DNA of 32,000 nucleotides from Microcystis aeruginosa NIES-843. GTDB taxonomy: Bacteria > Cyanobacteriota > Cyanobacteriia > Cyanobacteriales > Microcystaceae. Both the position numbers and the translations under genes were made by a program. The DNA is taken from NCBI RefSeq assembly GCF_000010625.1, contig NC_010296.1, positions 2,970,001 to 3,002,000 of the forward strand, in the 5' to 3' direction. Below are positions 6,364 through 32,000 of the stretch, one piece after another. The notes under the pieces were generated by a model. The model had not been told where the DNA came from and did not search any database. It worked only from the letters and a program-made list of their open reading frames with translations. How positions within the stretch are numbered: position 1 is the stretch's first letter; every line of letters begins with the position of its first letter.

Positions 6364-6459
6364 CGTCTGTCTCTAAATATTTACAGCATCAGATAGTTTA
6401 CTAGATCTCTTGGGGAAAATGTTGATTGGGTGGGGCTGTTTTATTGCCGATCGCTGCCT

Positions 6460-6674
6460 AGGGTTTGGTGAAAAAGTTTTTCCTGGTGGCAGGGTGTGGG
6501 GTGTGGGGTGTGGGGTGTAGGGTTTTACCGATTTTGAGGAGGTCAATTACCTAATTTTCAGGGAAAAAGTCCCTAAAATTTTCCCCCCATCACTCCAATG
6601 GTCGGCACTTTTTGAGGGAAAAAAAGTCTGAAAACCTTATCCAACCAAGTTTTTAGATTTATTCAGCCAACCCT
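6460..6674. mobile_element. 215-bp MITE (family A, copy 1), a non-autonomous derivative of the IS at 15869-17552
   Basis: Termini are AGGGTTTGGTGAA ... TTCAGCCAACCCT. The element is colinear, with no indels in my manual alignment, with the copy at 18051-18265 (roughly 25 substitutions in 215). It shares about 17 bp at the left end and about 30 bp at the right end (GGTTTTTAGATTTATTCAGCAAACCCT) with the IS. Flanks are GCCT/ACCT, a degenerate 4-bp duplication. Confidence 0.8.
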
Positions 6675-6811
6675 ACCTAGACAAAATTAATTACACCGAT
6701 CGAAGCCTGATTAAACAGCTAGAATTGGTCTAGGTTGATCGGGGAACATCGGAACACTGGAACAGTAGGGGTTAGCTGCTTTTTTAGCTCACTTAACAAT
6801 ACCCAGTTTAA

Positions 6812-9538: not shown

Positions 9539-9673
9539 AGCCTTTTTGACCAGCTGATCACTAATTTTTTGGCTGAATGGTTCGGGCTAATCCTTGCTCT
9601 AAAGTAAAGGGAGGTTGCCAATCCAGGGTTTTTTGAATAGGGCTAGAGTCAAGACAAAAATTGATTTAATTAG

Positions 9674-11687: not shown

Positions 11688-11729
11688 AGTTTAGATTCTT
11701 GATTTATGGATAATTTTAGAAAAACAGTT

Positions 11730-14789: not shown

Positions 14790-15800
14790 TTATTTGCAGT
14801 CTTTTAAAATTCTTTTCAAGGTTTTGTAATCCGTATGTAAATGGATATTGTTTTTAACAACCAAACCTCGTACAGCCCCCCAAATCCAAGATAAAATCAG
14901 CCCAGACAAACCAAAATTATCATAAATAACTCTAGCGTACTCCTGCTTACAATTCGCTAATTTTGAGTTATCTTGATAGGAACTGCTGGCACCACCAAGT
15001 CTAAAAAAAGCAATCGTAGATTTGTCTTTGATTGACGATGCACTCATCTTATAAATCTTTTGATTAAGATCGAAATCAGCATATACTTTATATTTGGTGT
15101 TGAACGGAAGTTGAGCAAGTAGCTTTTTCTTAATGAATAGTCCTTGCGGACATAAAGTATTTTTGAACACAATTAATGGATTATATCTACTAATCCGTAG
15201 CTGACCGTTATCCATAATTACATTGCCATGAATTATGTCCGTATTGTTTAAACTTGCTTTTTGAATAGATTGGCTAGGTATATTTAACAATATATCATCG
15301 CTCCCCAGGTAGTAAATGTAATCTCCTTGACTCAATTTCCAGCCTTTATTCATCGCATCATATATACCTTCGTCAGGTTCGCTCAACCAATAATCTATCT
15401 GATCATCATACTTACGAATAATATCAATTGTGCTGTCCCTAGAACCTCCGTCTATAATAATATACTCAACATTATTGTAAGACTGGCTAATGACACTCTG
15501 AATTGCTTGCTCTAAGTGCTTTTCTCCATTAAAAACTACCGTTATAATAGTAACCAGAGGAACTGCAAATTTTTCCGATAACTCACTTGTCTCTGGGTAG
15601 GAATGCTTGAAATATCCCTTTGTTCTTAATCCTCCTTCTCCCCTGCGTTCTGGATTTGGTGGCAAAAATAAATGAGATTGCACTTTTGCACAAGGATCGT
15701 TAATAATAGCAGGCCTCTCCATAGTTACTCGGCGAGTTGTAGAGAAGTTAGCATCTAGCTCGATAAATTTTTTCTCTTGTAATGGTGGCTTTATTGTCAT
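14790..15800 (-). CDS. Glycosyltransferase family 2
   Basis: 'VTIITVVFNGEKHLEQAIQSVISQSYNNVEYIIIDGGSRDST' and 'DEGIYDAMNKG' are typical GT2 (GT-A) signatures. The true start may be the internal Met at 15722. Confidence 0.85.
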   Translation of the reverse strand: MTIKPPLQEKKFIELDANFSTTRRVTMERPAIINDPCAKVQSHLFLPPNPERRGEGGLRTKGYFKHSYPETSELSEKFAVPLVTIITVVFNGEKHLEQAIQSVISQSYNNVEYIIIDGGSRDSTIDIIRKYDDQIDYWLSEPDEGIYDAMNKGWKLSQGDYIYYLGSDDILLNIPSQSIQKASLNNTDIIHGNVIMDNGQLRISRYNPLIVFKNTLCPQGLFIKKKLLAQLPFNTKYKVYADFDLNQKIYKMSASSIKDKSTIAFFRLGGASSSYQDNSKLANCKQEYARVIYDNFGLSGLILSWIWGAVRGLVVKNNIHLHTDYKTLKRILKDCK

Positions 15801-15868
15801 ATCTTATCTTGATATTGGTAAACTACAAGCGGTTTAATCGTAATTACAAACTAGCTCAGTTTGTAATT

Positions 15869-17552
15869 AGGGTTTGCTGAAAAAGTCATTGAAAAGTACA
15901 GGTCTCTTAATCAATGATTTCACTTAGCTACAAGCATAAGCTTTAGTTGTTGATTAATTTTTAAATTATAACTTATCCTAATCATTGACCGAGAAAAAGT
16001 GCTGTTTTTCCATTTCAGACATAAAAAAGCCCAAAAAACCTGCCTCAACAGGTTAGAAAGATTCATGACTAAAAAAGTAATAGCAATCGCTGAAAAGGAA
16101 GTATGAGGAAGTTTAGCCATCACTTTACCTAAGCTAAATCTTCTTTTCCCTTGTCCAAATTTGCCCTCTATACAATTCCGAATCCTCTCATCATCAGTAG
16201 CTTGTTTCTTTTGTTCTTTACTAACATTTTTGGCTGGTCTTCCTAATGGGGGACCACTGATTCTGATTCCCCTTTCTTTACACCAAGCTCGGTTTTCTCT
16301 GGTTCGATAAATTTTGTCCACATGAACTGATTCTGGATAGTATCCTGTATAGTCATAATAAGCTTCTATTTGTGCTTTTAAATCTCCCGATTCATTAAAG
16401 TTATCCCAACTAATCCGGTCTAAAAATATGTAACCATCTATACAGCTTGCTGAGAATTTGGCCCCAAATTCTACGGGTTTTCCAGCTTTTCCTCTGACTA
16501 TCGGACGGATGTGGGGTTGAGTTAAGCTGACAATTCTGTCTTCAATACTCTGTTTGTTATTTTGGTACATCCAGAGTTGTTGGCGATAAACTTCTGTGAC
16601 TACTAATAACAGTTTATAGTCTCTTTTTTTCAAGCTTTGTAGAGAGGCTCCTTCTGCTAAAAGTTGTTCAATATGGTCGAGATTTCTTTTCAGATATTGC
16701 AGTTGTCTTTTTAGAGCTTTTCGTCTTTGTTTGAAGGTAGGTTTTCTTTTTTTTGCTACTTCTAAATAACTTTTTCTGGCCAGGAGACGATAGGTTCTCG
16801 GTTTTTGAACAAGTTTTCCTTTTATAGTTTCATAGAGAATATCAATAATTTTTTCGGTTTGTTTTCTTCCTTGATTTAACAGGTTTAAATCCGTAGGATA
16901 ACTAATATCTGCGGGCGCACAACTGGCATCTAAAATTAATTTACCTCGATTTTCTGGTTGACTTTGGGTTTCGCTCTCTAACTTTTTTTCGGTGTTTTCT
17001 TCTTCTTTTATTTCTCTCGAATTTTTGACCATAAAGCGATTCACTTTATTAATTAGTTCCCGAGTGATTCTTTCTCGAAAGTGAACCAACATTGACGCTT
17101 CAAACTGGGGTTCATTGCTGTAGGCTGAAAACCCCAAGAAGTATTGTAAATAAGGATTTTCCTTGATTTGTTCTACCGTTTCTCTATCGCTTGTTCCTAA
17201 TTTTTCTTTAATAATTAATGCTCCTAGTGCTGTCCTAAATGTTTTGGCGGGTGCGCCCATTTCTTCTGAAAAAAGTGATGCGTATTCCGCTTCAAATTCT
17301 GACCAGGGAATGAGGTTGGCCATAATTACCCAACGATTATCTTGGGATAATTTCCCCTCAAAGGGCAGCTCGAAGTTTTCTGGTGGGGTTGAGGGTAACT
17401 CGCTTTTACGGTACATTAGCACTAATTAGAGAAGATGCAAGGGTGATGCAAGGGTTTTAAGAGATTCTAGCAGATTTAAGTGCATTTGGGAAGCTCTCAA
17501 TCAAGCTAAAAGCCCTTTCCTGTAAGGTTTTTAGATTTATTCAGCAAACCCT
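15869..17552 (-). mobile_element. IS element (IS5/IS1182 superfamily), 1684 bp
   Basis: Terminal inverted repeats AGGGTTTGCTGAA (15869-15881) and TTCAGCAAACCCT (17540-17552). Flanked by AATT on both sides (15865-68 and 17553-56). Contains one 500-aa transposase ORF. Confidence 0.8.
15920..17422 (-). CDS. Transposase, IS5/IS1182-like (DUF772-type N-terminus + DDE domain)
   Basis: 500 aa. The N-terminal 'FELPFEGKLSQDNRWVIMANLIPWSEFEAEYASLF' resembles the InsH/DUF772 transposase N-terminal domain. The C-terminal part 'VHVDKIYRTRENRAWCKERGIRISGPPLGRP' is typical of this transposase class. Confidence 0.85.
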   Translation of the reverse strand: MLMYRKSELPSTPPENFELPFEGKLSQDNRWVIMANLIPWSEFEAEYASLFSEEMGAPAKTFRTALGALIIKEKLGTSDRETVEQIKENPYLQYFLGFSAYSNEPQFEASMLVHFRERITRELINKVNRFMVKNSREIKEEENTEKKLESETQSQPENRGKLILDASCAPADISYPTDLNLLNQGRKQTEKIIDILYETIKGKLVQKPRTYRLLARKSYLEVAKKRKPTFKQRRKALKRQLQYLKRNLDHIEQLLAEGASLQSLKKRDYKLLLVVTEVYRQQLWMYQNNKQSIEDRIVSLTQPHIRPIVRGKAGKPVEFGAKFSASCIDGYIFLDRISWDNFNESGDLKAQIEAYYDYTGYYPESVHVDKIYRTRENRAWCKERGIRISGPPLGRPAKNVSKEQKKQATDDERIRNCIEGKFGQGKRRFSLGKVMAKLPHTSFSAIAITFLVMNLSNLLRQVFWAFLCLKWKNSTFSRSMIRISYNLKINQQLKLMLVAK

Positions 17553-17683
17553 AATTAGCCCTATGGAACTAGAAAGATTATTGCAGCTCTCTCATACTTG
17601 CCAAAATACTATTAAACTAGCCTGGGGGTTATATCAGCTAATATGATTAGCTAAAAAAATTAACTTTAAGACCTAGAGGAAGT

Positions 17684-18044: not shown

Positions 18045-18050
18045 TTAGGT

Positions 18051-18265
18051 AGGGTTTGCTGAAAAAGCTTTTCCTGGGGGCAGGGTGTGGGGTGTGGGGT
18101 GTGGGGTGTGGGGTTTTACCGATTTTGAGGTAGTCAGTTGCCTAATTTTCAGGGAAAAAGTACCTGAATTTTGCCCCCGATCCCCGCAATGGCTGGCACT
18201 TTTTGAGGGAAAAAAAGTCTAAAAGTCTTATCCAACAAGGTTTTTAGATTTATTCAGCAAGCCCT
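18051..18265. mobile_element. 215-bp MITE (family A, copy 2)
   Basis: Termini are AGGGTTTGCTGAA (18051-63) and TTCAGCAAGCCCT (18253-65). Perfect 4-bp duplication AGGT (18047-50 and 18266-69). Same orientation and length as copy 1 at 6460-6674. Confidence 0.8.
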
Positions 18266-18600
18266 AGGTACTTACTAGAAAGCCAACGGCTCTCCCGATA
18301 TAATGGAGAAAAATGTTGGAATATCTTCCATTTAGCCTCCTGGACAGTCATTATAGACAATTACTCCAGCCCCGAATTAATTCAACGGGATGATTAGACC
18401 TCGACCTAATATTATCTCAAGACTAAAAGTTATTCTAGTCAGGGAACACACCCAAATAAAAATAATTTTAATTGCTTCATATTTTTTCAGTGAAATTGAA
18501 TTAGCGACGATAGATATACATTTCAGCTATCGAACTATTTAGTTAGTACATAAGCTAAAGGCAGGCTGTGATTGGGTTATAATTTTTGGAGATGTCTATT

Positions 18601-19817
18601 AGAACTCTTGCAAATTAATTATATGTTATAATGATGGGTTAACTAATTTTCCCCAAAAAATTAGTTAATCAGTACATTCGTCCTGAATGAAAACTTGAAG
18701 TTTAACTTTTAACTCAAAACTCTTTAGAGCTGCTTTAATTTGGTTATCAAAACCTCTTTATTTAAGCGGCACAAACTATCTCAATTTTTATAATTGAGAA
18801 TAAATTCTCCTTGACTTGATTAATCTTTAGGCAACTTTTAAGAAGCTGCTATACCTATCCCTAACTCACAGTTATAAATAGCCGCCAACAAGTTAACTCT
18901 TAAACTATATCTTCGACGACGATTCCGATATTTACAGGATAAGATTTTAAAGGTTTTGAGTTTCCTATTTATATGTTCAATGATAATCCTTTCTTTGGCT
19001 AAAGCCTTGTTATACTCTTTTTCTAACTCTGTTAATTTTCTATTTTTCGGTTTCTTTTTCGGTGTATAACTATTACTATGGTATGCAGCTATTCCCTGAT
19101 AACCACTGTCTTCTATGCTGGTAGTTAAAGGATGAAAACGAACTCGACTTTTTTTAAATAAACTAAAATCATGACCTCTGCCTTTCCCACAAAAGACACA
19201 GATAATTTCCTCTGTATTTTGATCAGCTACTAATTGGGATTTTAAAGTATGATAACCTCTTTTACCCCAAAAAAAATCTTTCTGTTTCTTTTGGGGGCGT
19301 TCAATGGGAGTTTCCGTTACATCCATTACCGTTACGACCGGTATCTCTGCTTGATTGAGTAAAGCTTTTTTTCCTTTTAAACGGAAGTTTCCCGATTGTA
19401 AAAGCATTTTTTCCGTCTTATTTACAATCCGACATATAGTTGATTCTGATAGTTCCCAGCTTGTACCAATGTGAAAATATGTTCTATATTCTCGCCAATA
19501 TTCTAACGTTACTAAAACTTGTTCTTCTATAGATAGTTTAGGTTTCAGTCCCCTTTTAGATGGTGAATTAGAGTCGGCTTCAACACTTTTTACTGATTCT
19601 ACCATCTTTCTATATGTTTGTTTATACACACCGAAACGGCGTTTGAATTGCTCATCTGATAAGTTTTGATAATCCATAATTTTGCTAATAAACATAGCAA
19701 AATTATAGATGATTTCCTGACCTAAGATCACATTTTATTCTTTTTTCCACTTCAATCTAAGAATTGAGAAAAAAGCAAAACCTTATATTATACCATAAAA
19801 AAATTATGCAAGAGGTC
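18601..19817 (-). mobile_element. IS element, IS5-family / Harbinger-PIF-like (DDE_Tnp_4 type), 1217 bp
   Basis: Termini are AGAACTCTTGCA (18601-12) and TGCAAGAGGTCT (19806-17), an 11/12 inverted repeat. A 3-bp duplication ATT lies at 18598-600 and 19818-20. Contains one transposase ORF. An AT-rich 12-bp-stem hairpin (18639-18668) lies downstream of the ORF, inside the element. Confidence 0.7.
18838..19677 (-). CDS. Transposase, DDE_Tnp_4 (Harbinger/IS5-like) with N-terminal HTH
   Basis: 'LSIEEQVLVTLEYWREYRTYFHIGTSWELSESTICRIV' is an HTH_Tnp_4-like segment. Catalytic candidates are 'VTVMDVTETPIERP', 'LVADQNT' and 'ERIIIEHINRKLKTFKIL'. The likely start is MDYQNL at 19677; the ORF track extends to 19731. 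Confidence 0.8.
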   Translation of the reverse strand: MDYQNLSDEQFKRRFGVYKQTYRKMVESVKSVEADSNSPSKRGLKPKLSIEEQVLVTLEYWREYRTYFHIGTSWELSESTICRIVNKTEKMLLQSGNFRLKGKKALLNQAEIPVVTVMDVTETPIERPQKKQKDFFWGKRGYHTLKSQLVADQNTEEIICVFCGKGRGHDFSLFKKSRVRFHPLTTSIEDSGYQGIAAYHSNSYTPKKKPKNRKLTELEKEYNKALAKERIIIEHINRKLKTFKILSCKYRNRRRRYSLRVNLLAAIYNCELGIGIAAS

Positions 19818-21741: not shown

Positions 21742-22290
21742 TTACTTGAAAGATTGCAATACTTCATTATATAGCTTTAAATACTTAGATGCTTGAATCT
21801 CAAGAGTAAATTCTCGCACTACTTTTTCACGAGCGCAATCGCACAATTTCTGGTATCTTTCACTATCTTCTAATACCCAATGAATTCCTTGAGCTAAGTC
21901 TTCAATATCGTAGGGATGAGCCAGATAACCATTCTCTTGATGTTCGATCATATCAGGCATTCCACCAATTTTAAAAGCAACAGAGGGAGTTCCACAGGCG
22001 AGAGCTTCCATGACTGTGTTAGGAAGATTATCCTCAAGGGAGGGAGCGATGAAAATATCGGCGGCGGCATAGACTAAAGCTAGGGAAATGTCATCATTTA
22101 ATCTGCCTAAATAATGGGTTTTCAGTCCAAAATCAGGCGGATTAACTGGTTCAGAAGCACCGAAGACCACTAACTCTAATTTATGCTGCCATATTTCCCC
22201 CTGACTGAGTTTTTTTATAGCAGGTAGCAGCAGATGAAACCCTTTTCGGTTATCGCTTGTTGCCGTCATAGTGCCGAATAGAAATTGATT
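21742..22290 (-). pseudogene. C-terminal half of a GT4 glycosyltransferase, 5'-truncated at the IS630 boundary
   Basis: The native sequence starts at 'NQFLFGTMTATSDNRKGFHLLLPAIKKL' and includes 'EDNLPNTVMEALACGTPSVAFKIGGMPDMI' (EX7E). The first 16 codons of the track ORF (to 22338) are encoded by the IS630 terminal repeat. The N-terminal Rossmann domain of about 170-190 aa is absent on both sides of the IS. Confidence 0.75.
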
Positions 22291-22361
22291 TATAGCAATT
22301 CTTGGAGCTATGAGGTACAATGGAAAGCAAATAGACAAATAATAGAACTTACCGGCTTCCT

Positions 22362-22748
22362 ATGAGACCCTATTCCGTAGATTTTCGCCAAAAAATTATC
22401 GATGTCTGGAAGAAAGAAAAAATTTCCATTCGAGGACTAGCCCAGAGATTTGACGTGGCTAAAAGCTTTATTCAGAAGTTATTGAAGCAACATAAAGAAA
22501 CAGGAGATATCCGTCCTCGTCCGCAAGGGGGAAGTCCGCCAACCAAGTTAAATAGTGAACAACTGATAATTTTAATAGAAATCATCGAAGCTAACAATGA
22601 TGCAACTCTCGAAGAATTATCGGACTTACTGTATGAAAAGACACAGGTGAAAGTCAGTAGAGCCACCCTGGGGCGGCTTACGCAAAAACTCAATTACAGT
22701 TTCAAAAAAAAACACTACACGCGGCGGAAAAAGAAAGTGACAGGGTAG
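22362..22748 (+). CDS. IS630 transposase, N-terminal HTH part (orfA)
   Basis: 'YSVDFRQKIIDVWKKEKISIRGLAQRFDVAKSFIQKLLKQHKETGDIRPRPQGG' is a paired-like HTH typical of IS630 transposases. Confidence 0.85.
   Translation: MRPYSVDFRQKIIDVWKKEKISIRGLAQRFDVAKSFIQKLLKQHKETGDIRPRPQGGSPPTKLNSEQLIILIEIIEANNDATLEELSDLLYEKTQVKVSRATLGRLTQKLNYSFKKKHYTRRKKKVTG
22704..22712 (+). promoter_or_regulatory. A9 slippery run: site of the -1 frameshift or transcriptional slippage joining orfA and orfB
   Basis: In frame 0, TTC AAA AAA AAA CAC reads FKKKHYTRRKKKVTG*. One extra A in the mRNA, or a -1 ribosomal shift, gives FKKKTLHAAEKESDRVEQKRVEYWSEV..., which continues into orfB. Confidence 0.65.
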
Positions 22749-22759
22749 AGCAAAAAAGA

Positions 22760-23311
22760 GTGGAATACTGGTCAGAAGTTCGGGAAATTGAGGCATCAAA
22801 ACTAATTTTCATCGAGGAATCGGGGGTAAATTTAGCCCTTTTGAGACTCTATGCTAGAGCCTTAATTGGCCGAAGAGCTCGGGGAAGAAAACCACAAAAA
22901 AGAGGGAGAAATATTTCAATAATTAGTGCTATAAGCTTAGAAAAAGTTGTCGCATCAGTCAACATATACGGTGCAGTGGATGCGGTAACATTTGAAGGAT
23001 TTATTCTCAAGGAAGTGCTGCCAAAAATTAAAGAAGGAGACTGTCTGATCATGGATAACGCCAAGATTCATCTCGGAGAAATGGTCAGAGAAATAATCGA
23101 ACAAGAAAAAGCTAGACTCATCTATTTACCTCCTTATTCTCCCGAATTCTCTCCTATTGAAAACTTTTGGTCAAAAGTGAAAGCGACGTTAAGAAAACTG
23201 AAGGCGAGAACTTACAAAGACTTAATAGAAGGGATTGAATTGGCTATGTTAGAAGTTACTCAAAAAGATATTCGCAATTGGTTTACTCACTGTTGCTACT
23301 GTACCTCATAA
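22760..23311 (+). CDS. IS630 transposase, DDE catalytic part (orfB, -1 frame)
   Basis: 'LIMDNAKIH' and 'PPYSPEFSPIENFW' give the second D and the E with 34 residues between them. The first catalytic position reads 'FIEESG' where I expect the canonical DE[ST]. The frame is open upstream back to the A9 run, and the stop lies inside the right terminal repeat. Confidence 0.85.
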   Translation: MEYWSEVREIEASKLIFIEESGVNLALLRLYARALIGRRARGRKPQKRGRNISIISAISLEKVVASVNIYGAVDAVTFEGFILKEVLPKIKEGDCLIMDNAKIHLGEMVREIIEQEKARLIYLPPYSPEFSPIENFWSKVKATLRKLKARTYKDLIEGIELAMLEVTQKDIRNWFTHCCYCTS

Positions 23312-23336
23312 GTCAGAGAATTGCTATAGTTTCCAA

Positions 23337-24539
23337 CTAGGAAACAACTGTTTGGACAATATTCAGAAATTGTTCTGCATAAGTTTGGCATTCTATTTTA
23401 TTGTTGGTTTGCGCTTCTGATTCAGATATTAAATCTGGTCCAGGCATAAGCTTAGTCGTTAATAATTCAAGATGATTGGCAAGCTCTTGTGAAGAATCTG
23501 GTTTAAAAAATATAGCACCAGGAGAATTTTGCTCTTTGTGGACAGAAATATCTGATAATAATATTGTTTTACCTAACACTCGAGCATCTTCTACTACTGT
23601 ACTCCAGCCTTCAAACAATGAAGGCTGAATAACTGCTAACGATCTCCTCATGAGTTGAATCTGATCCCAACGGGGAATTAATCCAAGAATTATAAATTGA
23701 TCGCTTAAACAGTTTTTTTCAATTGAATTTTTTATTTCTTCTCCATACTTAGGAAATCGGCTATCATAAAGTTTACCAGTACACACAACTACGGGCTTGA
23801 CATTTGTTCTTTTCAATAAGATAAGTGCTTCTATGATAAGCTTATGATTTTTGTGTATCCAAAATTGATTGCTAACCAAAAAGAACTTGTTTGGAAGATT
23901 ATATTTTTCCTGAACTAATGTTGGAGCTAAATGATTGTCAAACCAGTCTTGATTGGGTATCGTTCTAAAACTTAATACAAATTTTTGAGCTTTAGATTCA
24001 GGGTAAAAAGCAGCAAAATCGCTCAAAGCACTTTTACTGCTAAAGACTATATTTAACGAATTGTTAGATAAATATTTAAATGCCTTATCACGGCTTTTTA
24101 TTTCTTTGGTAGAAAAATATGAGGGTAGATATTTATGTTGAAAATCTGGAATCCAAGTTGACCAACCGCAATTAAAATCCCAGGAAATACCCCAATTTAT
24201 TGGAACAGGATATACAAAGTCTATTTCTTTACTTTCTAAAAGTTTTATCAACCTTGTATCCTTTAGCCAAGTAGAACTTTGACCAACTTTCCATAATAAT
24301 CGATTCAAAAAAGAAGGCTTTATACAATTAGTTATGTATATTTGTTCCACTAGATTTTCCAGTTCTTCATAATAGCTTTTTTTGAGATTAGAACCAATAA
24401 ATAAATATAGCTTAATATGCTCCCTTTTATTGGCAGGTAACTCGGCAATAGATTTGACAAGATTTTTAATATAAATAATCCCCCCCATCCAGTTATCATC
24501 AGCTTGCATCAGAATACCAATATTTAAGGTTTTTATCAT
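23337..24539 (-). CDS. Glycosyltransferase, group 1 (GT-B)
   Basis: The C-terminal domain 'LVSNQFWIHKNHKLIIEALILL...VVCTG...PSLFEGWSTVVEDARVLGKTILLSD' contains EX7E. The likely start at 24539 forms an ATGA overlap with the upstream epimerase stop. The track ORF extends to 24563. Confidence 0.8.
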   Translation of the reverse strand: MIKTLNIGILMQADDNWMGGIIYIKNLVKSIAELPANKREHIKLYLFIGSNLKKSYYEELENLVEQIYITNCIKPSFLNRLLWKVGQSSTWLKDTRLIKLLESKEIDFVYPVPINWGISWDFNCGWSTWIPDFQHKYLPSYFSTKEIKSRDKAFKYLSNNSLNIVFSSKSALSDFAAFYPESKAQKFVLSFRTIPNQDWFDNHLAPTLVQEKYNLPNKFFLVSNQFWIHKNHKLIIEALILLKRTNVKPVVVCTGKLYDSRFPKYGEEIKNSIEKNCLSDQFIILGLIPRWDQIQLMRRSLAVIQPSLFEGWSTVVEDARVLGKTILLSDISVHKEQNSPGAIFFKPDSSQELANHLELLTTKLMPGPDLISESEAQTNNKIECQTYAEQFLNIVQTVVS

Positions 24540-25456
24540 CCCATTAGCTCCGCACGACACCATTGAGTATAGACACTGATTCCTCTATCAAGAGTTACTT
24601 CAGGAAGAAACCCAAGTTTTTTGAGACAATTTATATCCGCTTTCCAGTTTAAGGGATTGCCAATAGGTATTGTACCTTCAAAATGTACAGGAATATCGAG
24701 TTTCAACTGTTCTAGTATCAAGTTAACTAACTCCTTAATAGAGGTTTCTGTTCCACTTGCCAAATTATAAACATCGGCGTGACAAGGAGCTTTCTCTGTT
24801 AAGAGGTAGAGAGCTTTGGCTATATCTCGACTATGGATAAAATCACGACTTTCATTACCCGTTCCCTGTAGATTGAGAACGGGGTTTGTCAGAGCCTTAT
24901 GACAGATATCCCAGATAACTTGTCGCCTCAATCCCGGACCATAGGCAGAAAAGATGCGTACTGTAGCTGTTAGTAAACCATAAACTTGGAAAAACTCCCG
25001 GCAAAGTTGTTCACAGATTAGCTTATGGTAGCCATAGGGTGAAATAGGATTGAGGGAATGACTTTCATTAACGGGTAAAGTTTTGTGATTACCATAAACA
25101 GCAGCACTAGAAAGATAAATAACTCGGCATTGAGGTGCATGAAGGCGAAGTGCATCTAATAAGTTGAAAGTAACAACTACTCCATCGGTAAAATCTGCTT
25201 TTGGTTCACTTACTGAAAGAGGAACTGATGCCCTTGCAGCACAATGGATACAGACCTGTGGCTGTAGTTGTTCGATGAGTATGGCTAAATCAGGGGAAGG
25301 TAGAGTGAGTTGATGATAACGCAAGAGATCTTGAGTTGGCGCGTTTTCTGGAGGACGGGTTCCCAAACCGACAACAGACCACCCAGCTTGGGCGAATTCG
25401 CGAGCTATATACCGCCCAATAAATCCTGTAACACCAGTAATTAGAACAGTTTTCAA
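24536..25456 (-). CDS. NAD-dependent sugar epimerase/dehydratase (extended SDR, UDP-glucose 4-epimerase-like)
   Basis: 'VLITGVTGFIGRYIA' (GxxGxxG), 'SSAAVYG' and the catalytic 'YGYHKLICE' (YxxxK). Confidence 0.85.
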   Translation of the reverse strand: MKTVLITGVTGFIGRYIAREFAQAGWSVVGLGTRPPENAPTQDLLRYHQLTLPSPDLAILIEQLQPQVCIHCAARASVPLSVSEPKADFTDGVVVTFNLLDALRLHAPQCRVIYLSSAAVYGNHKTLPVNESHSLNPISPYGYHKLICEQLCREFFQVYGLLTATVRIFSAYGPGLRRQVIWDICHKALTNPVLNLQGTGNESRDFIHSRDIAKALYLLTEKAPCHADVYNLASGTETSIKELVNLILEQLKLDIPVHFEGTIPIGNPLNWKADINCLKKLGFLPEVTLDRGISVYTQWCRAELMG

Positions 25457-25654
25457 GACATTAATCCTAGAGTTTAGTTGGTGATAACTAATAGTATTTA
25501 CAGGTATCTGCTATTTCTCTGAATATCGATTCAATGACTAGAGGATATGTTTCTAAACATTTACTCCAACAACTATTCTAGAAAAAGTAGCGACAATTGC
25601 AGGAAAAAGCATTAACCTATGCGGCAAATTATAAAAATATGTGTTATTCAAATA

Positions 25655-26578
25655 TTATAATATTTCATAGCCGAGTTCAGATAATAGAGAATTATATTTT
25701 TCCTTAAAATACTGTTTATGTTCATCATTAAAATGGTTTTTCCAATCTCCTGTAATTCCCTTCCGATAATGACTCTTGATATTTTCTTCTCCTGGTTTTC
25801 TAGCCCCCGATAGTTTAATAAAATTATTATCATATACAATACTTAATAGCCGCCAAGGATAAAGCGGGGATCGAAAAGATAGCAAGTTCAAATTATTAAC
25901 GGGCATATATCTTGAGTATATTAGTTTTGAAATAACCTTCTGTAATCTGTAGTTTATCACAGATTTGAGAGCTATATTATTAGATTTTTCTAAAATTCCT
26001 AGAAACTGAAAAATATCTAGAAATTTGCTGTAGGGGTTAGAAACTAACTCTTCAAACTTGATCTCCATGATGTTAGGGCATGAGTAGTTCCACCCAAACA
26101 TATCTTTAAATACATTTACTTCTACTCCATCATATTTTAACCTCTCAAGATGTTCCATTGTTAAAAACAATCCTTCGTCTTTGGAAACTTTTTCTAATTG
26201 CTTTCTATAATCGACCAACTCAGGCCAGAATTGATCGCTGTGACTATACAGGTGAGAAAAGTAAGCTGATACTACTGTATCACGGGGGTCTCTGATCACG
26301 TGAAAACCTTTAAAATTTTGCAGGATTGGATTGACGTAATTTATATCGGCGTTGGTGTAGGATAAAAATTGAATTTTATTTCTGTTGATTGCTTCGGCTA
26401 AATCGAAGTTGAACATCTTGGGACTGTGGAAGTGCGTACTTTTAATTCCTATTTCCGAACACACCGAATAAACTACTTTTAAAATCCAGCTTGAACCAGC
26501 TTTATGATGACCGAAATAAGCTAGTATCGGGGTGTCCGTACTTATTGCAAGGTTTTTCATAAAAATATGATGAAACAT
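25655..26578 (-). CDS. Sulfotransferase family protein
   Basis: PAPS 5'-phosphosulfate-binding loop-like 'GHHKAGSSWILK'. 3'-phosphate-binding motif 'HVIRDPRDTVVSAYF'. C-terminal 'HYRKGITGDWKNHF'. Confidence 0.8.
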   Translation of the reverse strand: MFHHIFMKNLAISTDTPILAYFGHHKAGSSWILKVVYSVCSEIGIKSTHFHSPKMFNFDLAEAINRNKIQFLSYTNADINYVNPILQNFKGFHVIRDPRDTVVSAYFSHLYSHSDQFWPELVDYRKQLEKVSKDEGLFLTMEHLERLKYDGVEVNVFKDMFGWNYSCPNIMEIKFEELVSNPYSKFLDIFQFLGILEKSNNIALKSVINYRLQKVISKLIYSRYMPVNNLNLLSFRSPLYPWRLLSIVYDNNFIKLSGARKPGEENIKSHYRKGITGDWKNHFNDEHKQYFKEKYNSLLSELGYEIL

Positions 26579-26604
26579 TAAGGATGTAGTACCACATTAT
26601 AGCA

Positions 26605-27114
26605 TCAGAAAAGTTTTTTTGACAAGTTCAGCCTAAAAAAAACTTCTTTGGTAGAATGGCTCTTCGGTTTGTGTTATGCAATTGACGGGGAGTATAAGGG
26701 ATGGAACCCTTATATAGAAAGGCATTTAGCGATTTTTGTCAATTATTTTTGATCTAGAGCGAACTAATCAATTAAGTCTCTTGCCAGATAAGGATTTAGT
26801 CGATTTATGCCCCCCTATCGAACCATACCAAGTAACGAAGAACCGGTAGAATTATCTATAATTGTCAAAGGACGTTTTTCTATTTGAAAAAGACTGCAAT
26901 AAGCTTCTAGGTAAACAACCACAGCACTATTAATTATGTGGTCTTTTCCTTGAATTCCAGGCCCAAGAAAATCTACCTGATCATTTTCAAAAGCGAAAAA
27001 ATAGGGTTCTTTCTTGGGACTTATGTAAACTTCTGGGTGTTGCCCCAAGTATTGAGCTAGGGATGTGGTGCCAGACTTGGGGGCACCAATAATTAGGAAG
27101 TTAGGCATAGTCAT
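26605..27114 (-). pseudogene. Sulfotransferase N-terminal fragment carrying a MITE insertion
   Basis: 'MPNFLIIGAPKSGTTSLAQYLGQHPEVYISPKKEPYFFAF' is a classic sulfotransferase N-terminus with a PKSGTT P-loop. The ORF runs into the MITE at 26844 (...IIDNST|GSSLLGMVR*). After in-silico excision it continues only ...DNSTKEVFFRLNLSKKLF* (about 104 aa). It therefore lacks the RDP motif region and the C-terminal two thirds. Confidence 0.7.
26658..26844. mobile_element. 187-bp MITE (family E, copy 1)
   Basis: Termini are GGCTCTTCGGTT... and ...AACGAAGAACC, an imperfect 12-bp inverted repeat of the form GGYTCTTCGKTT. Perfect 8-bp duplication GGTAGAAT at 26650-57 and 26845-52. Colinear, in reverse complement, with 31352-31538. 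Confidence 0.85.
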
Positions 27115-27147
27115 ATAATTTAGCTCTCTACTAATAACAGTAATTAA

Positions 27148-27981
27148 TTAGAAATTATAACCCAATAAACCAGCTATATCCCGACTCGAATCTTCTATAA
27201 ACTTTCTATCTGACTCGGATAATTCTCGTCCACGATTGGCTACACCTTGACGAACAAATGACATTTTTTCGTTAACTAAATTTAAAGATGCGTGCTTTAA
27301 TTCTGATTCCTTCATTCGTTCTTTTGAACTCAAGGCGATCGCTTTTTCCAGAGAACTATCATCCATTATCATACCTAAAGACTCCATTAAAAGAAAGAGT
27401 TGTAATTTAGTATCTTCCAGAAAATCTTCATATCTAAATATTTTGATTCTCTGACTGGCTGGGTTGTGATCAAAATACCAAGACTTGCTGTGTTTTACCC
27501 AACTCATAATACCGTACTTATCATCTCTGATTAGCTCTGATATGGTAGTTGCCTCAGAAATTTGCTTTAGTCCCTTGAGATAATGATAATAGGAAACCAT
27601 TACATCTCTGGGATCTCTGACTAGGAGAATGACTCTGTAGTAGTACGGGTTATAGGCAGAGTGACTTTTAATAATTCTAGGTAAGTCTGTTCTTCCAAAA
27701 GGCCCAGTTGGCTGTAGGTTTATCTTGCCTCGCGGAGAAGGTATGATACCCAAGATAGTAAAAAAATTGACATCTTGATCTATTCGATAATGGACTTTGA
27801 TAGCATTAGCAATTAAAAATCTTAACCATGTGTTTCCTGATTTTGGATAGGAAACGAGGAAAACATCCTCTACCACATGATTTTTATGCAGAGAACGCCC
27901 ATACTTGATTTTTTTTGCTATTCGACTAGGCAAGGTCAAGATGTTTAAAGAATTCAATGGAAAGGATAGTATGTTTTTCAT
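27148..27981 (-). CDS. Sulfotransferase domain protein
   Basis: 'VSYPKSGNTWLRFLIANA' (5'-PSB loop), 'ILLVRDPRDVMVSYYHY' (3'-PB motif) and 'SFVRQGVANRGRE' near the C-terminus. Confidence 0.85.
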   Translation of the reverse strand: MKNILSFPLNSLNILTLPSRIAKKIKYGRSLHKNHVVEDVFLVSYPKSGNTWLRFLIANAIKVHYRIDQDVNFFTILGIIPSPRGKINLQPTGPFGRTDLPRIIKSHSAYNPYYYRVILLVRDPRDVMVSYYHYLKGLKQISEATTISELIRDDKYGIMSWVKHSKSWYFDHNPASQRIKIFRYEDFLEDTKLQLFLLMESLGMIMDDSSLEKAIALSSKERMKESELKHASLNLVNEKMSFVRQGVANRGRELSESDRKFIEDSSRDIAGLLGYNF

Positions 27982-28154
27982 AAGGTTTCGTCTTTATATA
28001 TTCACCAGTTTCTCACCGGCCATCATAACACACAGTTTTACATAATATAGGTCTTTCCTAGATCGCAAAAAGTACTTATCAAGTAACTATAAGCTAAGAC
28101 GCATTTAAACCGCTTATTCTTAGATTAGCCGAACCTCCCCCAATCCCTTTACTG

Positions 28155-28182
28155 TTGCCTTTTGCCTCTTGCCTTTTGCCTC
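28155..28182. repeat. 14-bp tandem repeat x2 (TTGCCTTTTGCCTC)
   Basis: Two perfect adjacent copies in the 368-bp gap between the Wzy-like gene stop and the sulfotransferase start. Confidence 0.8.
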
Positions 28183-28349
28183 GTTTCAACAAGCAATTTA
28201 AATTACGAACAGCTTAGCAGTTTTCATCAGAATCAGGCATGGGCAAGGGGCTTAAACCATTTGTTGGCAAAACTTGTCGATACGTCAGTAACGGGAAAAG
28301 TGCTATATTTAGTTAGTCCATAATTATAACTCCGTTTATAGAATTGAAT

Positions 28350-29717
28350 TCATATTTTATATCCTTTATATTTCTTGTATTTTTTTTTGTAGTATTCTCT
28401 GATTAAAAGTATTAACCAAATAATCAAAAAACGAAAGACAGAGCCTAGACTTAACAATAGCAAAAACAGGGCAATAAAAGAAGTAAAAATAATCAAGAAA
28501 TTATTTTTTGTAGAATCTCCAAATCTACAAATTAAGGCAATTGTAATTGGACCGATAAAAGCTCCTACCCAACCAAAATTAGATAAGGATTCCCCCAACC
28601 AAGTCCCTGTTATACCGAAGAGAACATCTTTGGGAGATATGTTAAAAGAGGCCGCTGCCACATATTTTTGGTAATTATAAGTAATGGGTTTACCTGGACA
28701 CAAAAAGCGAGGAATATATAAAACTAAAGCATGATAAACTGTCTGAAGTCGATGATCGAGTATCTTAAGTTTATCAGGATTTAATTCTGAATAAATAGAC
28801 AGTTTAAGCAGATGGTCTCTACCATAATCGAAACGAGATATTTCATACATTTGCTTTGTATCTATACCCCTGACTAAGGAAGTTTGATAAGAATAGGAAA
28901 AAAGACCAAAAACTAATAATAAACCCAATAAAAATGCTAAGATTTTTACTCTATTAAAAGCTTTTTTTAATAGAAAAGTGAGGATTAAAGCGAAAATCAT
29001 AAAAGCAACAATATGCCGCTTGCCGTTAAGCCATATTGTTATGGATGTTGGTATTATAACACTTGCCCAAAAGTACAAATTCATTAGTGACAAATTTTTA
29101 TTTTTTTGCAATAAAATCACTGTTATCATTCCACTCAAACTGAGTAAAGAAGAAAGATGTATAAGTTGATGAAATTTTTCCTCTTCTTCCGACAAGAGAC
29201 CAGCACCTTTTGCTCCGTAAGTGATGTAGAGACCGGGATTAGGACTAAATGACCAAAGAATGACAGGTAAGAATAAAAGAAAGTAACCAATAAGTAGTAT
29301 CATTAATAACTTAAATTGTTTACCGAGCTTATACCTATTGCTGGAACCAATTAAGTTAACCCAAAATGTTTGATTATTGATTAATAATCTTCCATGACTC
29401 TCCTTGTCTTTGGGGATTCCATTGTACCACAATACTACTGGCACGATAGCAATGTATAGGCAGTAAATCAAAAAGGTTGTTTCATCCCTAACAGCCACTC
29501 TTAGATTATCAAGTCCACGAAAAAAGTCGTACTTAGGTTCACCAATTACTAAATCTAATAATAACGGCACACCAAAAAATAAAAAATTAATGATAATTAC
29601 TAAGTAGGCAGAGTAATAGCGCTTAAATATTATATTCTTGCCGGACAAAAAAGCCCAAAATAAAAGCCAGGCAAAGGTTATTATCTTAACTAAGTTAATC
29701 TCATTTTCGCTCATCAT
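28350..29717 (-). CDS. Polytopic membrane protein, putative oligosaccharide repeat-unit (O-antigen) polymerase Wzy
   Basis: 455 aa, with about 10-12 hydrophobic segments and very AT-rich coding sequence. It lies directly downstream of a Wzx flippase in a glycosyltransferase cluster. I saw no diagnostic motif; the call rests on topology and context. Confidence 0.55.
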   Translation of the reverse strand: MMSENEINLVKIITFAWLLFWAFLSGKNIIFKRYYSAYLVIIINFLFFGVPLLLDLVIGEPKYDFFRGLDNLRVAVRDETTFLIYCLYIAIVPVVLWYNGIPKDKESHGRLLINNQTFWVNLIGSSNRYKLGKQFKLLMILLIGYFLLFLPVILWSFSPNPGLYITYGAKGAGLLSEEEEKFHQLIHLSSLLSLSGMITVILLQKNKNLSLMNLYFWASVIIPTSITIWLNGKRHIVAFMIFALILTFLLKKAFNRVKILAFLLGLLLVFGLFSYSYQTSLVRGIDTKQMYEISRFDYGRDHLLKLSIYSELNPDKLKILDHRLQTVYHALVLYIPRFLCPGKPITYNYQKYVAAASFNISPKDVLFGITGTWLGESLSNFGWVGAFIGPITIALICRFGDSTKNNFLIIFTSFIALFLLLLSLGSVFRFLIIWLILLIREYYKKKYKKYKGYKI

Positions 29718-29785
29718 ATCTCCTTAGTAAGTTTTCTCTGATAACATCGAAACGCAAATAATTAAGTAGGGAGGCAAAATTATTT

Positions 29786-29850
29786 GTAGGATGGGTTAGC
29801 GGTAGCGTAACATAATCGGGCGTTGGGTTTCATGCTTCAACCCAACCTAC
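29786..29850. repeat. Nested palindromic element (GTAGGATGGGTT ... GTTGGGTT-n9-AACCCAAC-CTAC)
   Basis: The outer arms GTAGGATGGGTT (29786-97) and AACCCAACCTAC (29839-50) pair at 11/12. The inner hairpin GTTGGGTT tcatgcttc AACCCAAC is perfect. The element lies between the wzx stop and the wzy start. It resembles the GTTGGGTT/AACCCAAC palindromes I recall as dispersed repeats in cyanobacteria. Confidence 0.5.
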
Positions 29851-29881
29851 GTTCATCTTATATTTAATTCCACCCACCCAT

Positions 29882-31183
29882 TTAAATTGCCGTAGATTTG
29901 ATGCCCAATTTTTGGCGTACCCAGATAGCACTGATAACATTGCCCACAATCATCGAGATTGCGGTGGCAGTGGCTGCACCATTCACCCCCCACTTCGGTA
30001 TTAGTAGCCAATTAAGACAGACATTTAACAAAGCGGCAAATGCCACAGTTGCTGCACTAAATTTAGCATGGCGGGTCATATTTAGCAATAGACCCACGGA
30101 ACCAGTCAGAGCGTTAACCAGATAGCCAATACTCAAAATTATCAAAGCTGTTTGTCCCTGTATAAACTCAGCACCAAAAAGCTGTAAGATCGAGTATCTC
30201 AATGCAATCAACCCCAAAGTCATGACTAGAGCAAACAAGCTGATTAAACGAGTGCTATGAGTAACCAGCCTTTGCAGTTGTTCCCGCTTTCCCTCTGCAT
30301 ACAGTGTAGCAAAAGTTGGCGAAAGGACGTTATTCAATATTCCCAGGGCAAAAACAATCAGAGAAGTGACTCGACTGACTACTGCGTAAACTCCCACCGC
30401 ACCCGCACCCTTGAAGGCACCGAGCATCAATATATCGATACGAGAGTTAATCACCGCTAGTCCTCCTAGCAAAATAAACGGTAAGCCGTCCTTCAGCCAA
30501 GTCAGAATTTTGTATTCAGGTTTAGCCTGTTTAACCTCTTGGGGAAGCACTCTGGCTAATAGTACCACACCAACGACAAAAGTAATGCCAAGAGATATCA
30601 ATTTTAAGCCCATCACCCAGACAGTGATATTTTCTTGATTTCTAAGAAACCAGTAGCTAGAAATCGTCAGGATAATAAAAACTAAGGGAGCTAGTAGATT
30701 TTCTGGCATTTGCCCTAAAACCACCCTGTGTAAACCCTTCATCGTCGCTAGTCTCAAGCTAGTTAAAGAGACAATTGGTAAGGAAATCATCGCTACACAC
30801 AGAGATGGTAATAAGTCCGGCTCCCTGACTTGTCCCCAGTTCAGAATAATAGCAATAGCAACTAATGCCATTAGGCTAGAAACTATGAAGACAATTGCAT
30901 TTGCCCATTGTAATAGACCACGCATTAATCCCCAAGCTGACTGACTACTATAGATAGCCACTTCTCTGACTAATAAGTTATTAAAGCCTAGAGTCGCAGG
31001 AATGCCCAGCAAAGCCGGCCAAGTCATTGCATAAGTATAAACCCCAAAGCCATTTTTACCGAGCCAGCGAGCTAGAATAATACTGGTCAGAAAACTAAGG
31101 GTCATGAAAGCAACTCTTAAACCAAGAGAACCCGTCGCATCTCGAATTAAACGTTCTTTCAGTTTTAAGGGAGTTTTCTTCAT
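29882..31183 (-). CDS. wzx: Wzx-type oligosaccharide flippase (MOP superfamily polysaccharide biosynthesis protein)
   Basis: 433 aa, about 12 TM segments. The N-terminal 'GSLGLRVAFMTLSFLTSIILARWLGKNGFGVYTY' is typical of PST/MOP flippases. Confidence 0.85.
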   Translation of the reverse strand: MKKTPLKLKERLIRDATGSLGLRVAFMTLSFLTSIILARWLGKNGFGVYTYAMTWPALLGIPATLGFNNLLVREVAIYSSQSAWGLMRGLLQWANAIVFIVSSLMALVAIAIILNWGQVREPDLLPSLCVAMISLPIVSLTSLRLATMKGLHRVVLGQMPENLLAPLVFIILTISSYWFLRNQENITVWVMGLKLISLGITFVVGVVLLARVLPQEVKQAKPEYKILTWLKDGLPFILLGGLAVINSRIDILMLGAFKGAGAVGVYAVVSRVTSLIVFALGILNNVLSPTFATLYAEGKREQLQRLVTHSTRLISLFALVMTLGLIALRYSILQLFGAEFIQGQTALIILSIGYLVNALTGSVGLLLNMTRHAKFSAATVAFAALLNVCLNWLLIPKWGVNGAATATAISMIVGNVISAIWVRQKLGIKSTAI

Positions 31184-31208
31184 CTTTTTCTTTGCTCCAG
31201 AGATGCTA

Positions 31209-32000
31209 CTAAGTCCATCGTGAATAAACTTTTCTGATTTCTTCCTCCGTGTAAAAATGATTAAAGTATTTAGAACTGCACATCTCCTCTACATAAGATA
31301 GTGGTAATTTGAGATTTTGCTTAAATTCTTTATACATATCTCGATAATTTTGGCTCTTCGGGACTTGGTATGGTTCGATAGGGGGGCATAAATCGACTCA
31401 ATCCTTATCTGGCAAGAGATTTAATTGATTAGTTCGCTCCAGATCGCCAACAATTGACAAAAATTGCGGCAATGTCTGTCTCTATAAAGGTTTCATTCCT
31501 TATAACCCCGTCCATTGCATAAGACAAACCGAAGAACCATAATTTTTATCTTCTCCCACGTTCGTCCTTACTAACTTAAATTCTTTTAAACCCAGAAATT
31601 CGGCGATTGCTTTTTCCTTTACACTGTCAGAGGTTTCTAGTTTGAGGATCAATAAATCCACATTATCTTTGTTAATTCTTAAATATCCCTGCTCTTTCGG
31701 AAAAGGATATTCATAAACATCTATCCCTAAAAATGGCTTGAAGTAATTATCGAACCAGTCTAGGGGAGTTGAATGAGGGAAAAAATTGATAAATATATCC
31801 CTTAGCTCTTGGGGAGTAAAATTGGATTGTTCATACTTTTTCCCTGTTTCTCTTTCAAAGTTCTGAAAAAAAGCTGCAACATTTCTACCTATTGGTTCCC
31901 TAGTTAAAGAAATAATTTTTACTTGTTTTTTCGGGGCAATTATTTTGTTATATAAAAATTTACCCTGTCTGAGTAGCATTTCTCTCTCCAGTTTTACGCT
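31209..32000 (-). pseudogene. Sulfotransferase-like / capsular-polysaccharide-synthesis family gene, interrupted by a MITE; 5' end runs off the window
   Basis: The track ORF 31500..31979 contains 'IISLTREPIGRNVAAFFQN', an RxP...R motif reminiscent of the sulfotransferase 3'-PB site. It ends in MITE-encoded GSSVCLMQWTGL*. Removing 31352..31538 plus one 8-bp duplication continues ...GEDKNYRDMYKEFKQNLKLPLSYVEEMCSSKYFNHFYTEEEIRKVYSRWT* to a stop at 31209, 25 bp upstream of the wzx start. The frame is open upstream of 31979 to the window edge. Confidence 0.6.
31352..31538. mobile_element. 187-bp MITE (family E, copy 2; inverted relative to copy 1)
   Basis: The + strand starts GGCTCTTCGGGACTTGGTATGG and ends ...CAAACCGAAGAACC. 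Perfect 8-bp duplication ATAATTTT at 31344-51 and 31539-46. The reverse complement aligns end to end with 26658-26844. Confidence 0.85.

Follow-up and report, generated by a model that had tools for sequence, protein, structure and literature searches.

The polysaccharide gene cluster and its two MITE copies

The stretch of DNA analysed here (the window) comprises 32,000 nucleotides of the Microcystis aeruginosa NIES-843 genome (contig NC_010296.1, forward strand, 2,970,001 to 3,002,000; positions below are those of the window) and includes a polysaccharide gene cluster that contains two 187-bp transposable elements of the miniature inverted-repeat kind (MITEs), denoted copy 1 and copy 2 (Table 1). 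From 23337 to 32000 all genes are on the minus strand, in the transcription order NKWYS (a gene named here after its Pfam domain), wzx, a wzy-like gene, a sulfotransferase gene, a 99-aa sulfotransferase fragment, another sulfotransferase gene, an epimerase gene and a gene for a glycosyltransferase of the GT1 type; the remainder of the window contains glycosyltransferase and methyltransferase genes of the polysaccharide cluster. The wzx protein, the intact 277-aa sulfotransferase, the 99-aa fragment and the truncated 248-aa NKWYS protein agree in full with their NIES-843 entries (accessions in Table 1). The wzy-like protein has no Pfam match and scores 26.9 bits against TIGR04370 (oligosaccharide repeat unit polymerase; cut-off 40), and the position of the gene, between wzx and the modification genes, fits a polymerase. 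The cluster is of the Wzx/Wzy type, hypervariable and riddled with insertion sequences (ISs), and the surface polysaccharide is probably sulfated.

The two copies are mutually reverse-complementary, 4,507 bp apart and 86.7% identical in a global alignment (163/188), with longest identical runs of 36, 20 and 19 bp. Their termini, GGCTCTTCG / GGTTCTTCG, are inverted ends, with an imperfect likeness that extends to about 40 nt. The junctions in the window read ...CTTCTTTGGTAGAAT-MITE-GGTAGAATTATCTATAATTG... for copy 1 and ...ATCTCGATAATTTT-MITE-ATAATTTTTATCTTCTCC... for copy 2. Both copies are shorter than 600 bp, lack a transposase open reading frame (ORF) and have terminal inverted repeats (TIRs) and perfect 8-bp target-site duplications (TSDs); the ORFs that enter either copy are tails of host ORFs only. 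A 24-mer from the MITE core occurs in the window twice, only at the two copies, and not once in 100 shuffled sequences, so the match is not due to chance. An earlier inspection of the letters and ORFs (the sequence-only reading) had placed the copies, their TSDs, their equal size, inverted orientation and spacing of about 4.5 kb exactly; its by-eye identity of 85-90% agrees with the measured value, and the MITE-encoded tails that it described, GSSLLGMVR at copy 1 and GSSVCLMQWTGL at copy 2, each followed by a stop, are present in the translations.

Table 1. Positions of the two MITE copies and of the features around them in the window
Feature	Positions	Strand	Description and basis
MITE copy 1	26658..26844	+	187 bp, 'TAAC' subfamily; sequence and alignment
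Copy 1 TSD GGTAGAAT, outer side	26650..26657		direct reading
Copy 1 TSD GGTAGAAT, inner side	26845..26852		direct reading
MITE copy 2	31352..31538	-	187 bp, 'TCCC' subfamily; sequence and alignment
Copy 2 TSD ATAATTTT, inner side	31344..31351		direct reading
Copy 2 TSD ATAATTTT, outer side	31539..31546		direct reading
NKWYS (PF10364) gene, 5' part	31500..32000	-	runs off the window; 280 aa in relatives; BAG03115.1 (248 aa)
Orphaned NKWYS 3' end	31209..31343	-	residues 239-280 and stop
wzx flippase	29882..31183	-	433 aa; PF01943; BAG03114.1
wzy-like membrane protein	28350..29717	-	455 aa; TIGR04370 full-length, sub-threshold
Insertion of ~215 bp	28091..28305		wzy-sulfotransferase spacer; not in L094 or L108; further copies in other Microcystis loci
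Sulfotransferase, intact	27148..27981	-	277 aa; PF00685; BAG03111.1
Sulfotransferase remnant ORF	26815..27114	-	99 aa; WP_041804129.1
Best promoter-like site of the region	26596..26625	-	TTGTCA-18-TATAAT with TG, 11/12 matches; consensus match only
Sulfotransferase	25655..26578	-	307 aa; first gene of the swapped-in cassette
Epimerase	24536-25456	-	swapped-in cassette
GT1	23337-24563	-	swapped-in cassette

A published MITE family and its ISL3 parent

Both copies are members of the published 187-bp Microcystis MITE family. NIES-843 is the genome in which this class of MITE was first catalogued: Kaneko et al. 2007 (PMC2779907) list, for this strain, MaeMITEb (187 bp, 132 copies) and ISMae36 (1,424 bp, ISL3, 32 copies), and the identical size and genome suggest that the family is probably MaeMITEb. 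In strain PCC 7806, Stark et al. 2024 (PMC11448079) describe a 187-nt MITE with 8-nt direct repeats and 9-nt imperfect ends starting with GGCTCTTCG, which is attributed to an ISL3 transposase and transposed in laboratory lineages. The ends given in the supplement of that work match nearly base for base, for the MITE (GGCTCTTCGTTACTTGTATGGTTCGATAGGGGGGCATAAATC) with copy 1 and for the ISL3 element with the 1,422-bp element described below, and the peptide of the published ORF, MPPYRTITSNEE, compares with ATGCCCCCCTATCGAACCATACCAAGTAACGAAGAA in copy 1 (MPPYRTIPSNEE).

A scan for the core 24-mer, in which each species is represented by one genome and only copies with the exact 24-mer are sampled, identifies 93 loci, almost all of them in Microcystis; two complete chromosomes contain at least 15 copies each. 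The BLAST search for further copies that the sequence-only reading had proposed, run with copy 1 on these loci, recovers 74 full-length copies; perfect 8-bp TSDs flank 51 of the 74, and the TSDs are 79% A+T. Two or more copies are present within 6 of 70 8-kb loci. The few 24-mer matches outside the genus come from bins labelled Crocinitomicaceae (L002, L037), Merismopediaceae (L053) and Nocardioides allogilvus (L072, a 689-bp contig); the contigs are short, and contaminating or mis-binned Microcystis DNA is the likeliest source.

The parent IS with the same ends and an 8-bp TSD that had been predicted from the letters does exist: the same ends occur at a larger spacing in one 1,422-bp element of Microcystis sp. 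BLCC-F210 (L008 2676-4097, TSD GAATTTAT). The 404-aa ORF of this element encodes an ISL3 transposase (PF01610, E = 7e-70, in addition to PF14690 and PF13542, the ISL3 zinc ribbon and helix-turn-helix domains), and its termini align with both ends of the MITE. The shared ends and TSD length point to mobilisation of the MITE in trans by a transposase of the ISMae36 type.

Two independent insertions of different age

The site of copy 2 is polymorphic among related Microcystis contigs. An intact 280-aa NKWYS gene is found 25 bp upstream of an identical wzx in ten of these, and the empty site, with a single ATAATTTT, is present in L094-L103 and L106, where it reads ...GATAAAAATTATCGAGAT...; the BLAST pieces that flank the site overlap by exactly 8 bp, the length of the TSD. 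L106 has copy 1 and lacks copy 2; alignment of this contig with the window shows 100% identity across the 462 bp outside the site and 99.9% across the 4,660 bp on its inner side. Copy 2 is carried by the sister samples L100, L105, L119, L120 and L122, and shares 99.5% identity with copies in M. ichthyoblabe FBCC-A1114. Given the empty L106 with its near-identical flanks and the 99.5% match to other copies, copy 2 is a very recent, strain-variable insertion, directly upstream of wzx as proposed from the sequence alone, and the ORF restored at the empty site is a conserved gene.

Copy 1 is older than copy 2 and lies in the leftover of a cassette swap, where no working gene is interrupted. It is common to NIES-843, PCC 9432, the metagenome-assembled genome (MAG) S633 and many metagenome contigs, and its identity with copies from other Microcystis genomes reaches 97.3%. 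The tail GSSLLGMVR is present in NIES-843, PCC 9432 and S633 (1954 MAG), and the contigs with the 307-aa sulfotransferase gene all either span copy 1 or break within it; the empty site gives 0 matches in a metagenome scan and is absent from the contigs with the 307-aa sulfotransferase gene. The greater age of copy 1 follows from this shared tail and from the lack of any contig that has the 307-aa gene and no copy 1.

The sequence-only reading had copy 1 truncate a sulfotransferase gene, which does not hold. In relatives, this place is occupied by an intact sulfotransferase gene of 303 aa (PF13469/PF00685), and the homology of the window to this gene reaches only to 26884 (codon 77) and is followed by 39 bp of unrelated DNA before the MITE begins. 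The 99-aa ORF accordingly consists of codons 1-77 homologous to the 303-aa gene (27114-26884), 13 unrelated codons and a 9-codon MITE tail, and excision of copy 1 yields an ORF of only 104 aa. Beyond copy 1 there is AT-rich, promoter-like intergenic DNA, and the promoter-like site of Table 1 is located between copy 1 and the next sulfotransferase gene. No gene-level effect of copy 1 is obvious.

Compared with relatives (L094-L098), the methyltransferase genes are replaced in the window by a sulfotransferase-epimerase-GT1 module. The borders of the swap are marked by what remains of two genes: a GT1 gene, of which the 3' part is left (21742-22338), and the sulfotransferase gene, of which the 5' part is left (26815-27114). 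A swap mediated by the MITE at copy 1 was considered and is ruled out, given that 39 bp separate the homology break at 26884 from the MITE and that the TSD is intact.

Another insertion of the same family is found in L095 (11135-11320; also in L096-L103), with the TSD GAATTTTG and in the orientation of copy 1, 13 bp past the stop of the intact 303-aa sulfotransferase gene; this site is empty in L094, near 15010-15025. As this insertion is at a separate site, three distinct sites of the cluster have been struck, in different strains.

Thus, with a probability of roughly 85%, the arrangement results from two independent cut-and-paste insertions of a known, active 187-bp MITE (GGYTCTTCG ends, 8-bp AT-rich TSD), mobilised in trans by an ISL3 transposase, into a polysaccharide gene cluster. 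The independence of the two events follows from the different TSDs, the different subfamilies and the third, separate insertion in other strains. In the order of events that is best compatible with these observations, the sulfotransferase-epimerase-GT1 module would have displaced the methyltransferase genes along with parts of two other genes, namely the 3' part of a sulfotransferase gene and the 5' part of a glycosyltransferase gene; copy 1 would then have landed in the non-coding remnant DNA just downstream of the swap breakpoint; and copy 2 would have inserted later and alone, cutting the NKWYS gene upstream of wzx. The opposite orientation of the copies is the coin-flip outcome of two separate events and not a designed inverted-repeat switch.

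The same geometry could suggest a composite transposon, in which both MITEs and the intervening 4.5 kb were moved as a whole by the ISL3 transposase, spreading the wzx-wzy-sulfotransferase core. Indeed, the outermost ends at 26658 and 31538 form a proper inverted pair (GGCTCTTCGGTTTG / GGTTCTTCGGTTTG), and Microcystis does have an ISL3 transposase with ends that match. However, the outer flanks differ (GGTAGAAT versus ATAATTTT) and each MITE has its own TSD; L106 shows that copy 2 arrived alone in a pre-existing colinear cluster; L094 has the same gene order without any MITE; and no second genomic context of the segment was found. The differing TSDs and L106 exclude a composite transposon as the origin of the arrangement, and the probability left to spread of the core by this route is close to nil.

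Effect on the NKWYS gene and on wzx

The host ORF of copy 2 is the 280-aa gene of the relatives rather than the 159- or 191-aa ORF of the window. In NIES-843, the host protein stops after native residue 236 and a 12-aa MITE-encoded tail, which gives the 248-aa BAG03115.1 with the C-terminus GEDKNYGSSVCLMQWTGL; an exact look-up of the 159-aa ORF finds nothing on record because the true product is this 248-aa protein, which starts outside the window. With copy 2 excised, the NKWYS stop extends to 31209 and leaves 25 bp up to the wzx ATG at 31183, and 43 C-terminal codons are restored, as the sequence-only reading had it, given that the codons of residues 237-238 overlap the inner TSD (31344-31351). 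Through the insertion, residues 237-280 (44 residues), including the end of the Pfam domain, are lost; the truncated NKWYS protein is probably non-functional.

The description of both hosts as sulfotransferase-type genes is correct only in part. Copy 2 is inside a conserved gene, whereas copy 1 is in a remnant, with no whole gene. The sole Pfam match of the full 280-aa host protein of copy 2 is PF10364 (NKWYS), at E up to 1, with no match to sulfotransferase models, and a comparison with sulfotransferase structures gives no sequence match to this protein. By contrast, UniRef names the NIES-843 protein 'Sulfotransferase family protein', in agreement with the earlier description, and its motifs GKVGSSS and LTREP recall those that bind 3'-phosphoadenosine 5'-phosphosulfate.

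Copy 2 with its TSD adds 195 bases to the transcript, 168 bp upstream of the wzx ATG. It might matter mainly through altered transcription of wzx and the downstream genes (by read-through, mRNA structure or a promoter within the MITE), with the break in the NKWYS gene being secondary. Compatible with this are the short distance to wzx with no promoter-like site in between, a predicted RNA fold that forms mainly by pairing of the terminal repeats and has no U-tract terminator, and the precedent in PCC 7806, where a MITE within sbp is transcribed through, as detected by reverse-transcription PCR, and the sbp-cysTWA operon is more than 2-fold up (PMC11448079). However, copy 2 contains no promoter-like hexamer pair directed at wzx, and the authors of the sbp study claim no established causal link; a mainly regulatory role is unlikely. 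Neither copy contains a terminator-like site. Because of this, and of the read-through of the same MITE in sbp, strong polarity on wzx, the polar effect raised in the sequence-only reading, is not expected; by analogy with sbp, transcription would read through copy 2 into wzx.

Possible inversion and other recombination between copies

The central suggestion of the sequence-only reading was that RecA-type recombination between the inverted MITEs flips the 4.5 kb with the wzx, wzy and sulfotransferase genes and thereby switches export and polymerisation reversibly on and off. The layout is suitable, with inverted 187-bp repeats that bracket the wzx, wzy-like and sulfotransferase genes, all on one strand, and share a 36-bp identical block; furthermore, inversions at Correia elements are documented in Neisseria (PMC3454330; PMC10969869), and one contig, L118 (see below), hints at recombination by a MITE at the copy 2 site. 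Nevertheless, L100, L104, L105 and L107, all four of the assemblies that span copy 1, are parental and show no inverted junction. In the window, each copy retains its own matching TSD and the segment is colinear with MITE-free relatives, which agrees with the earlier statement that it is un-inverted.

The inverted state would be recognised by the TSD-swapped junctions GGTAGAAT-MITE-AAAATTAT and ATTCTACC-MITE-ATAATTTT or, with longer flanks, ...CTTCTTTGGTAGAAT-MITE-AAAATTATCGAGATATG... and ...CAATTATAGATAATTCTACC-MITE-ATAATTTTTATCTTCTCC...; the sequences read are consensus assemblies, which rare inverted subpopulations would escape. A metagenome scan for the outer junction of copy 2 (MITE end plus ATAATTTTTATCTTCTCC), which is kept in both orientations, gives 0 matches and is uninformative on orientation. 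The window contains no invertase or integrase gene: a Pfam scan of the ORFs of at least 90 aa in 1-23000 and of nine gene-sized ORFs in 22760-32000 detects no site-specific recombinase and yields only DDE transposases, glycosyltransferases, methyltransferases, an MmeI-type enzyme and the like.

With respect to the substrate, the copies belong to different subfamilies, with only 86.7% identity and identical blocks of 36, 20 and 19 bp. For RecA, a repeat of about 190 bp whose copies differ by 13% makes a very poor substrate. Recombination falls log-linearly as divergence rises (PMC4824099). The sequence-only reading had itself named excessive divergence as fatal to its proposal; the geometry allows exchange between the copies, but the substrate is poor. 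Moreover, the pair is limited to the strains with the recent copy 2 and therefore is no conserved mechanism; the NKWYS gene is already broken in these strains, in a cluster with three ISs and gene remnants; and the opposite orientation is a 1-in-2 outcome in a family in which nearby pairs are common (the 6 of 70 loci mentioned above). Thus, the flip switch is geometrically possible, unsupported and mechanistically improbable; we consider its operation very unlikely and infer that meaningful inversion does not occur. Other inverted pairs, bracketing about 1.4 kb in L060 and L092, were considered as a recurrent structure and rejected, being MITEs inserted in transposase genes. These copies (L060 3098-3284 and L092 3178-3364) both lack matching TSDs, and the transposase gene in L060 belongs to the ISL3 parent family itself.

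Several observations weigh against the reading of the locus as two simple, inert insertions. Across the family, 23 of the 74 full-length copies lack a perfect TSD, 19 of these with at least three mismatches, and with about a quarter of the copies thus lacking matching TSDs, post-insertion rearrangements do occur. Adjacent pairs in the sampled loci are inverted in 6 cases and direct in 2, small numbers that fit a recombinational loss of direct pairs. In the contig L118 (ENA ERZ27268121 k141_34229, 9308-11968), a variant MITE links the outer flank of copy 2 with foreign DNA, the order being 5' part of NKWYS, AAAATTAT, MITE, TAAATTAA, a C-terminal TraG-like fragment (10896-11682) and another MITE, which lacks a TSD. 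The NKWYS part is 99.9% identical to L106 and the outer half of the TSD is intact; the MITE differs from copy 2 at six sites, all within positions 73-154. From the same sample, L122 contains the inner (wzx-side) flank with a copy 2 of the window type (141/141). This pattern would be expected from a crossover of copy 2 with another MITE in the first 72 nt, and the junction in L118 could be either the product of such MITE-MITE recombination or a mis-assembly. Should the junction be real, copy 2 does recombine, and 'two inert insertions' would understate how dynamic the locus is.

For the TraG-like fragment of L118, a homology search finds only relatives at 65-71% identity, and a plasmid search returns no source record. 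The stretch L118 9308-9384 (= L094 8439-8515, in the Wzz-NKWYS spacer outside the window), 77 bp that are 96% identical to a Gloeothece verrucosa PCC 7822 plasmid, marks the left homology break of L118 (9308). An Rfam search finds no match upstream of NKWYS in L118.

The MITE copies, copy 2 in particular, may tentatively be viewed as a recombination hotspot that interacts with some 100 other copies in the genome or on plasmids and produces irreversible strain-level variants rather than a switch. Occasional deletions, inversions and translocations would then disconnect the polysaccharide operon from its upstream region. The junction of L118 together with the window-type inner flank of L122 in the same sample, the 23 copies without perfect TSDs and the Correia precedent in Neisseria all point in this direction, and the copy 2 site appears in one sample series as empty, occupied and apparently recombinant (L118). 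On the other hand, there is just one such contig, L118, a metagenome assembly at k = 141 that runs through a 187-bp repeat, and both ends of its unique segments abut repeats, so that a mis-join is possible. Furthermore, no reciprocal TSD-swapped pairs are found among the TSD-less copies of two complete genomes, in a sparse sampling of copies with the exact 24-mer. The hotspot is possible but the less likely account; the stronger version, in which the copies are live recombination substrates and MITE-MITE exchange, perhaps including wzx-wzy inversion, is a recurrent route to switching off or re-wiring the polysaccharide, is improbable. If it were true, such recurrent exchange could affect colony formation and phage susceptibility.

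Other features of the window

Within the segment bracketed by the 187-bp copies and unrelated to them, the insertion of about 215 bp listed in Table 1 seems to have a TA-type target duplication and, on this basis, probably represents another MITE family. Yet another MITE-like element is present as two direct copies of about 220 bp (6459-6680 and 18048-18271), 88% identical, the ends of which (TAGGGTTTGCTGAA...) match the terminal repeats of the 1,694-bp IS at 15864-17557 (DUF772 and DDE_Tnp_1_2); by size, these fit MaeMITEa (219 bp) and ISMae5 (1,694 bp), respectively, of PMC2779907. The other two of the three ISs in the cluster are a DDE_Tnp_4 transposase gene (18838-19731) and an IS630-like element (22362-23311; HTH_32 and DDE_3 in two frames) that adjoins the glycosyltransferase remnant and is absent from L104.

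Among strains with an identical wzx, the wzy-like gene has two unrelated allele types, of 454/455 aa (the window, L094, L100) and 462 aa (L095-L103). In the comparison of the window with L095-L103, homology is lost directly past wzx (29878) and returns at 27903, which is typical of serotype-like cassette variation. Elsewhere in the window, 16-2655 is a complete gene for a restriction-modification enzyme of the MmeI type (type IIL), in which the five MmeI Pfam domains are all present, and 4560-4615 is an intergenic tandem heptanucleotide array of CTGACTC/CTGATTC units. An Rfam search reveals no RNA family in the window.

Implications and comparison with known systems

The element described here is largely already known and the finding is an ordinary one: for Microcystis, with a genome of about 12% mobile DNA, an active, ISL3-dependent 187-bp MITE that strikes genes is a routine case. 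These two sites, the NKWYS gene and the sulfotransferase remnant, and the inverted pairing of the copies are not specifically discussed in the literature examined. Specific to the locus is a recent, strain-variable insertion that probably disables the conserved NKWYS gene, a polysaccharide-modification gene just upstream of wzx, in a 5-kb stretch that was hit independently three times in different strains. This adds to a picture in which no part of Microcystis genomes is more plastic than the surface-polysaccharide clusters, with relevance to mucilage, colony formation and interactions with phages or grazers. The residual interest resides in the polymorphism of the copy 2 site and in the possible recombinant L118, and would increase should MITEs drive recurrent rearrangement of the cluster.

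Compared with the 187-nt MITE of PCC 7806, the copies described here have the same length, ends, 8-nt repeats and abundance (dozens to more than 100 copies per genome), likewise insert in genes and spacers and are active on short time scales; the element itself is no different. With ISs of the ISMae36 type the MITE shares the ends GGCTCTTCG(G/T)T, an extended TIR likeness (TTATGC motif) and the 8-bp TSD, whereas it lacks the transposase gene and its internal sequence is unrelated. Neisseria's Correia repeat-enclosed elements, or CREE, are similarly short, non-autonomous and multicopy, located in or beside genes and co-transcribed with them, but they target TA and belong to a family unrelated in sequence; both inversions and promoter activity have been documented for CREE, and neither for this pair. 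Finally, as in the fim, hin and Bacteroides polysaccharide promoter invertons, inverted repeats flank a segment the orientation of which would set surface expression. Those systems, however, combine short repeats with a dedicated tyrosine or serine recombinase and occur in both orientations in clonal populations, whereas the pair described here consists of diverged transposon copies, has no recombinase gene and is seen in one orientation.

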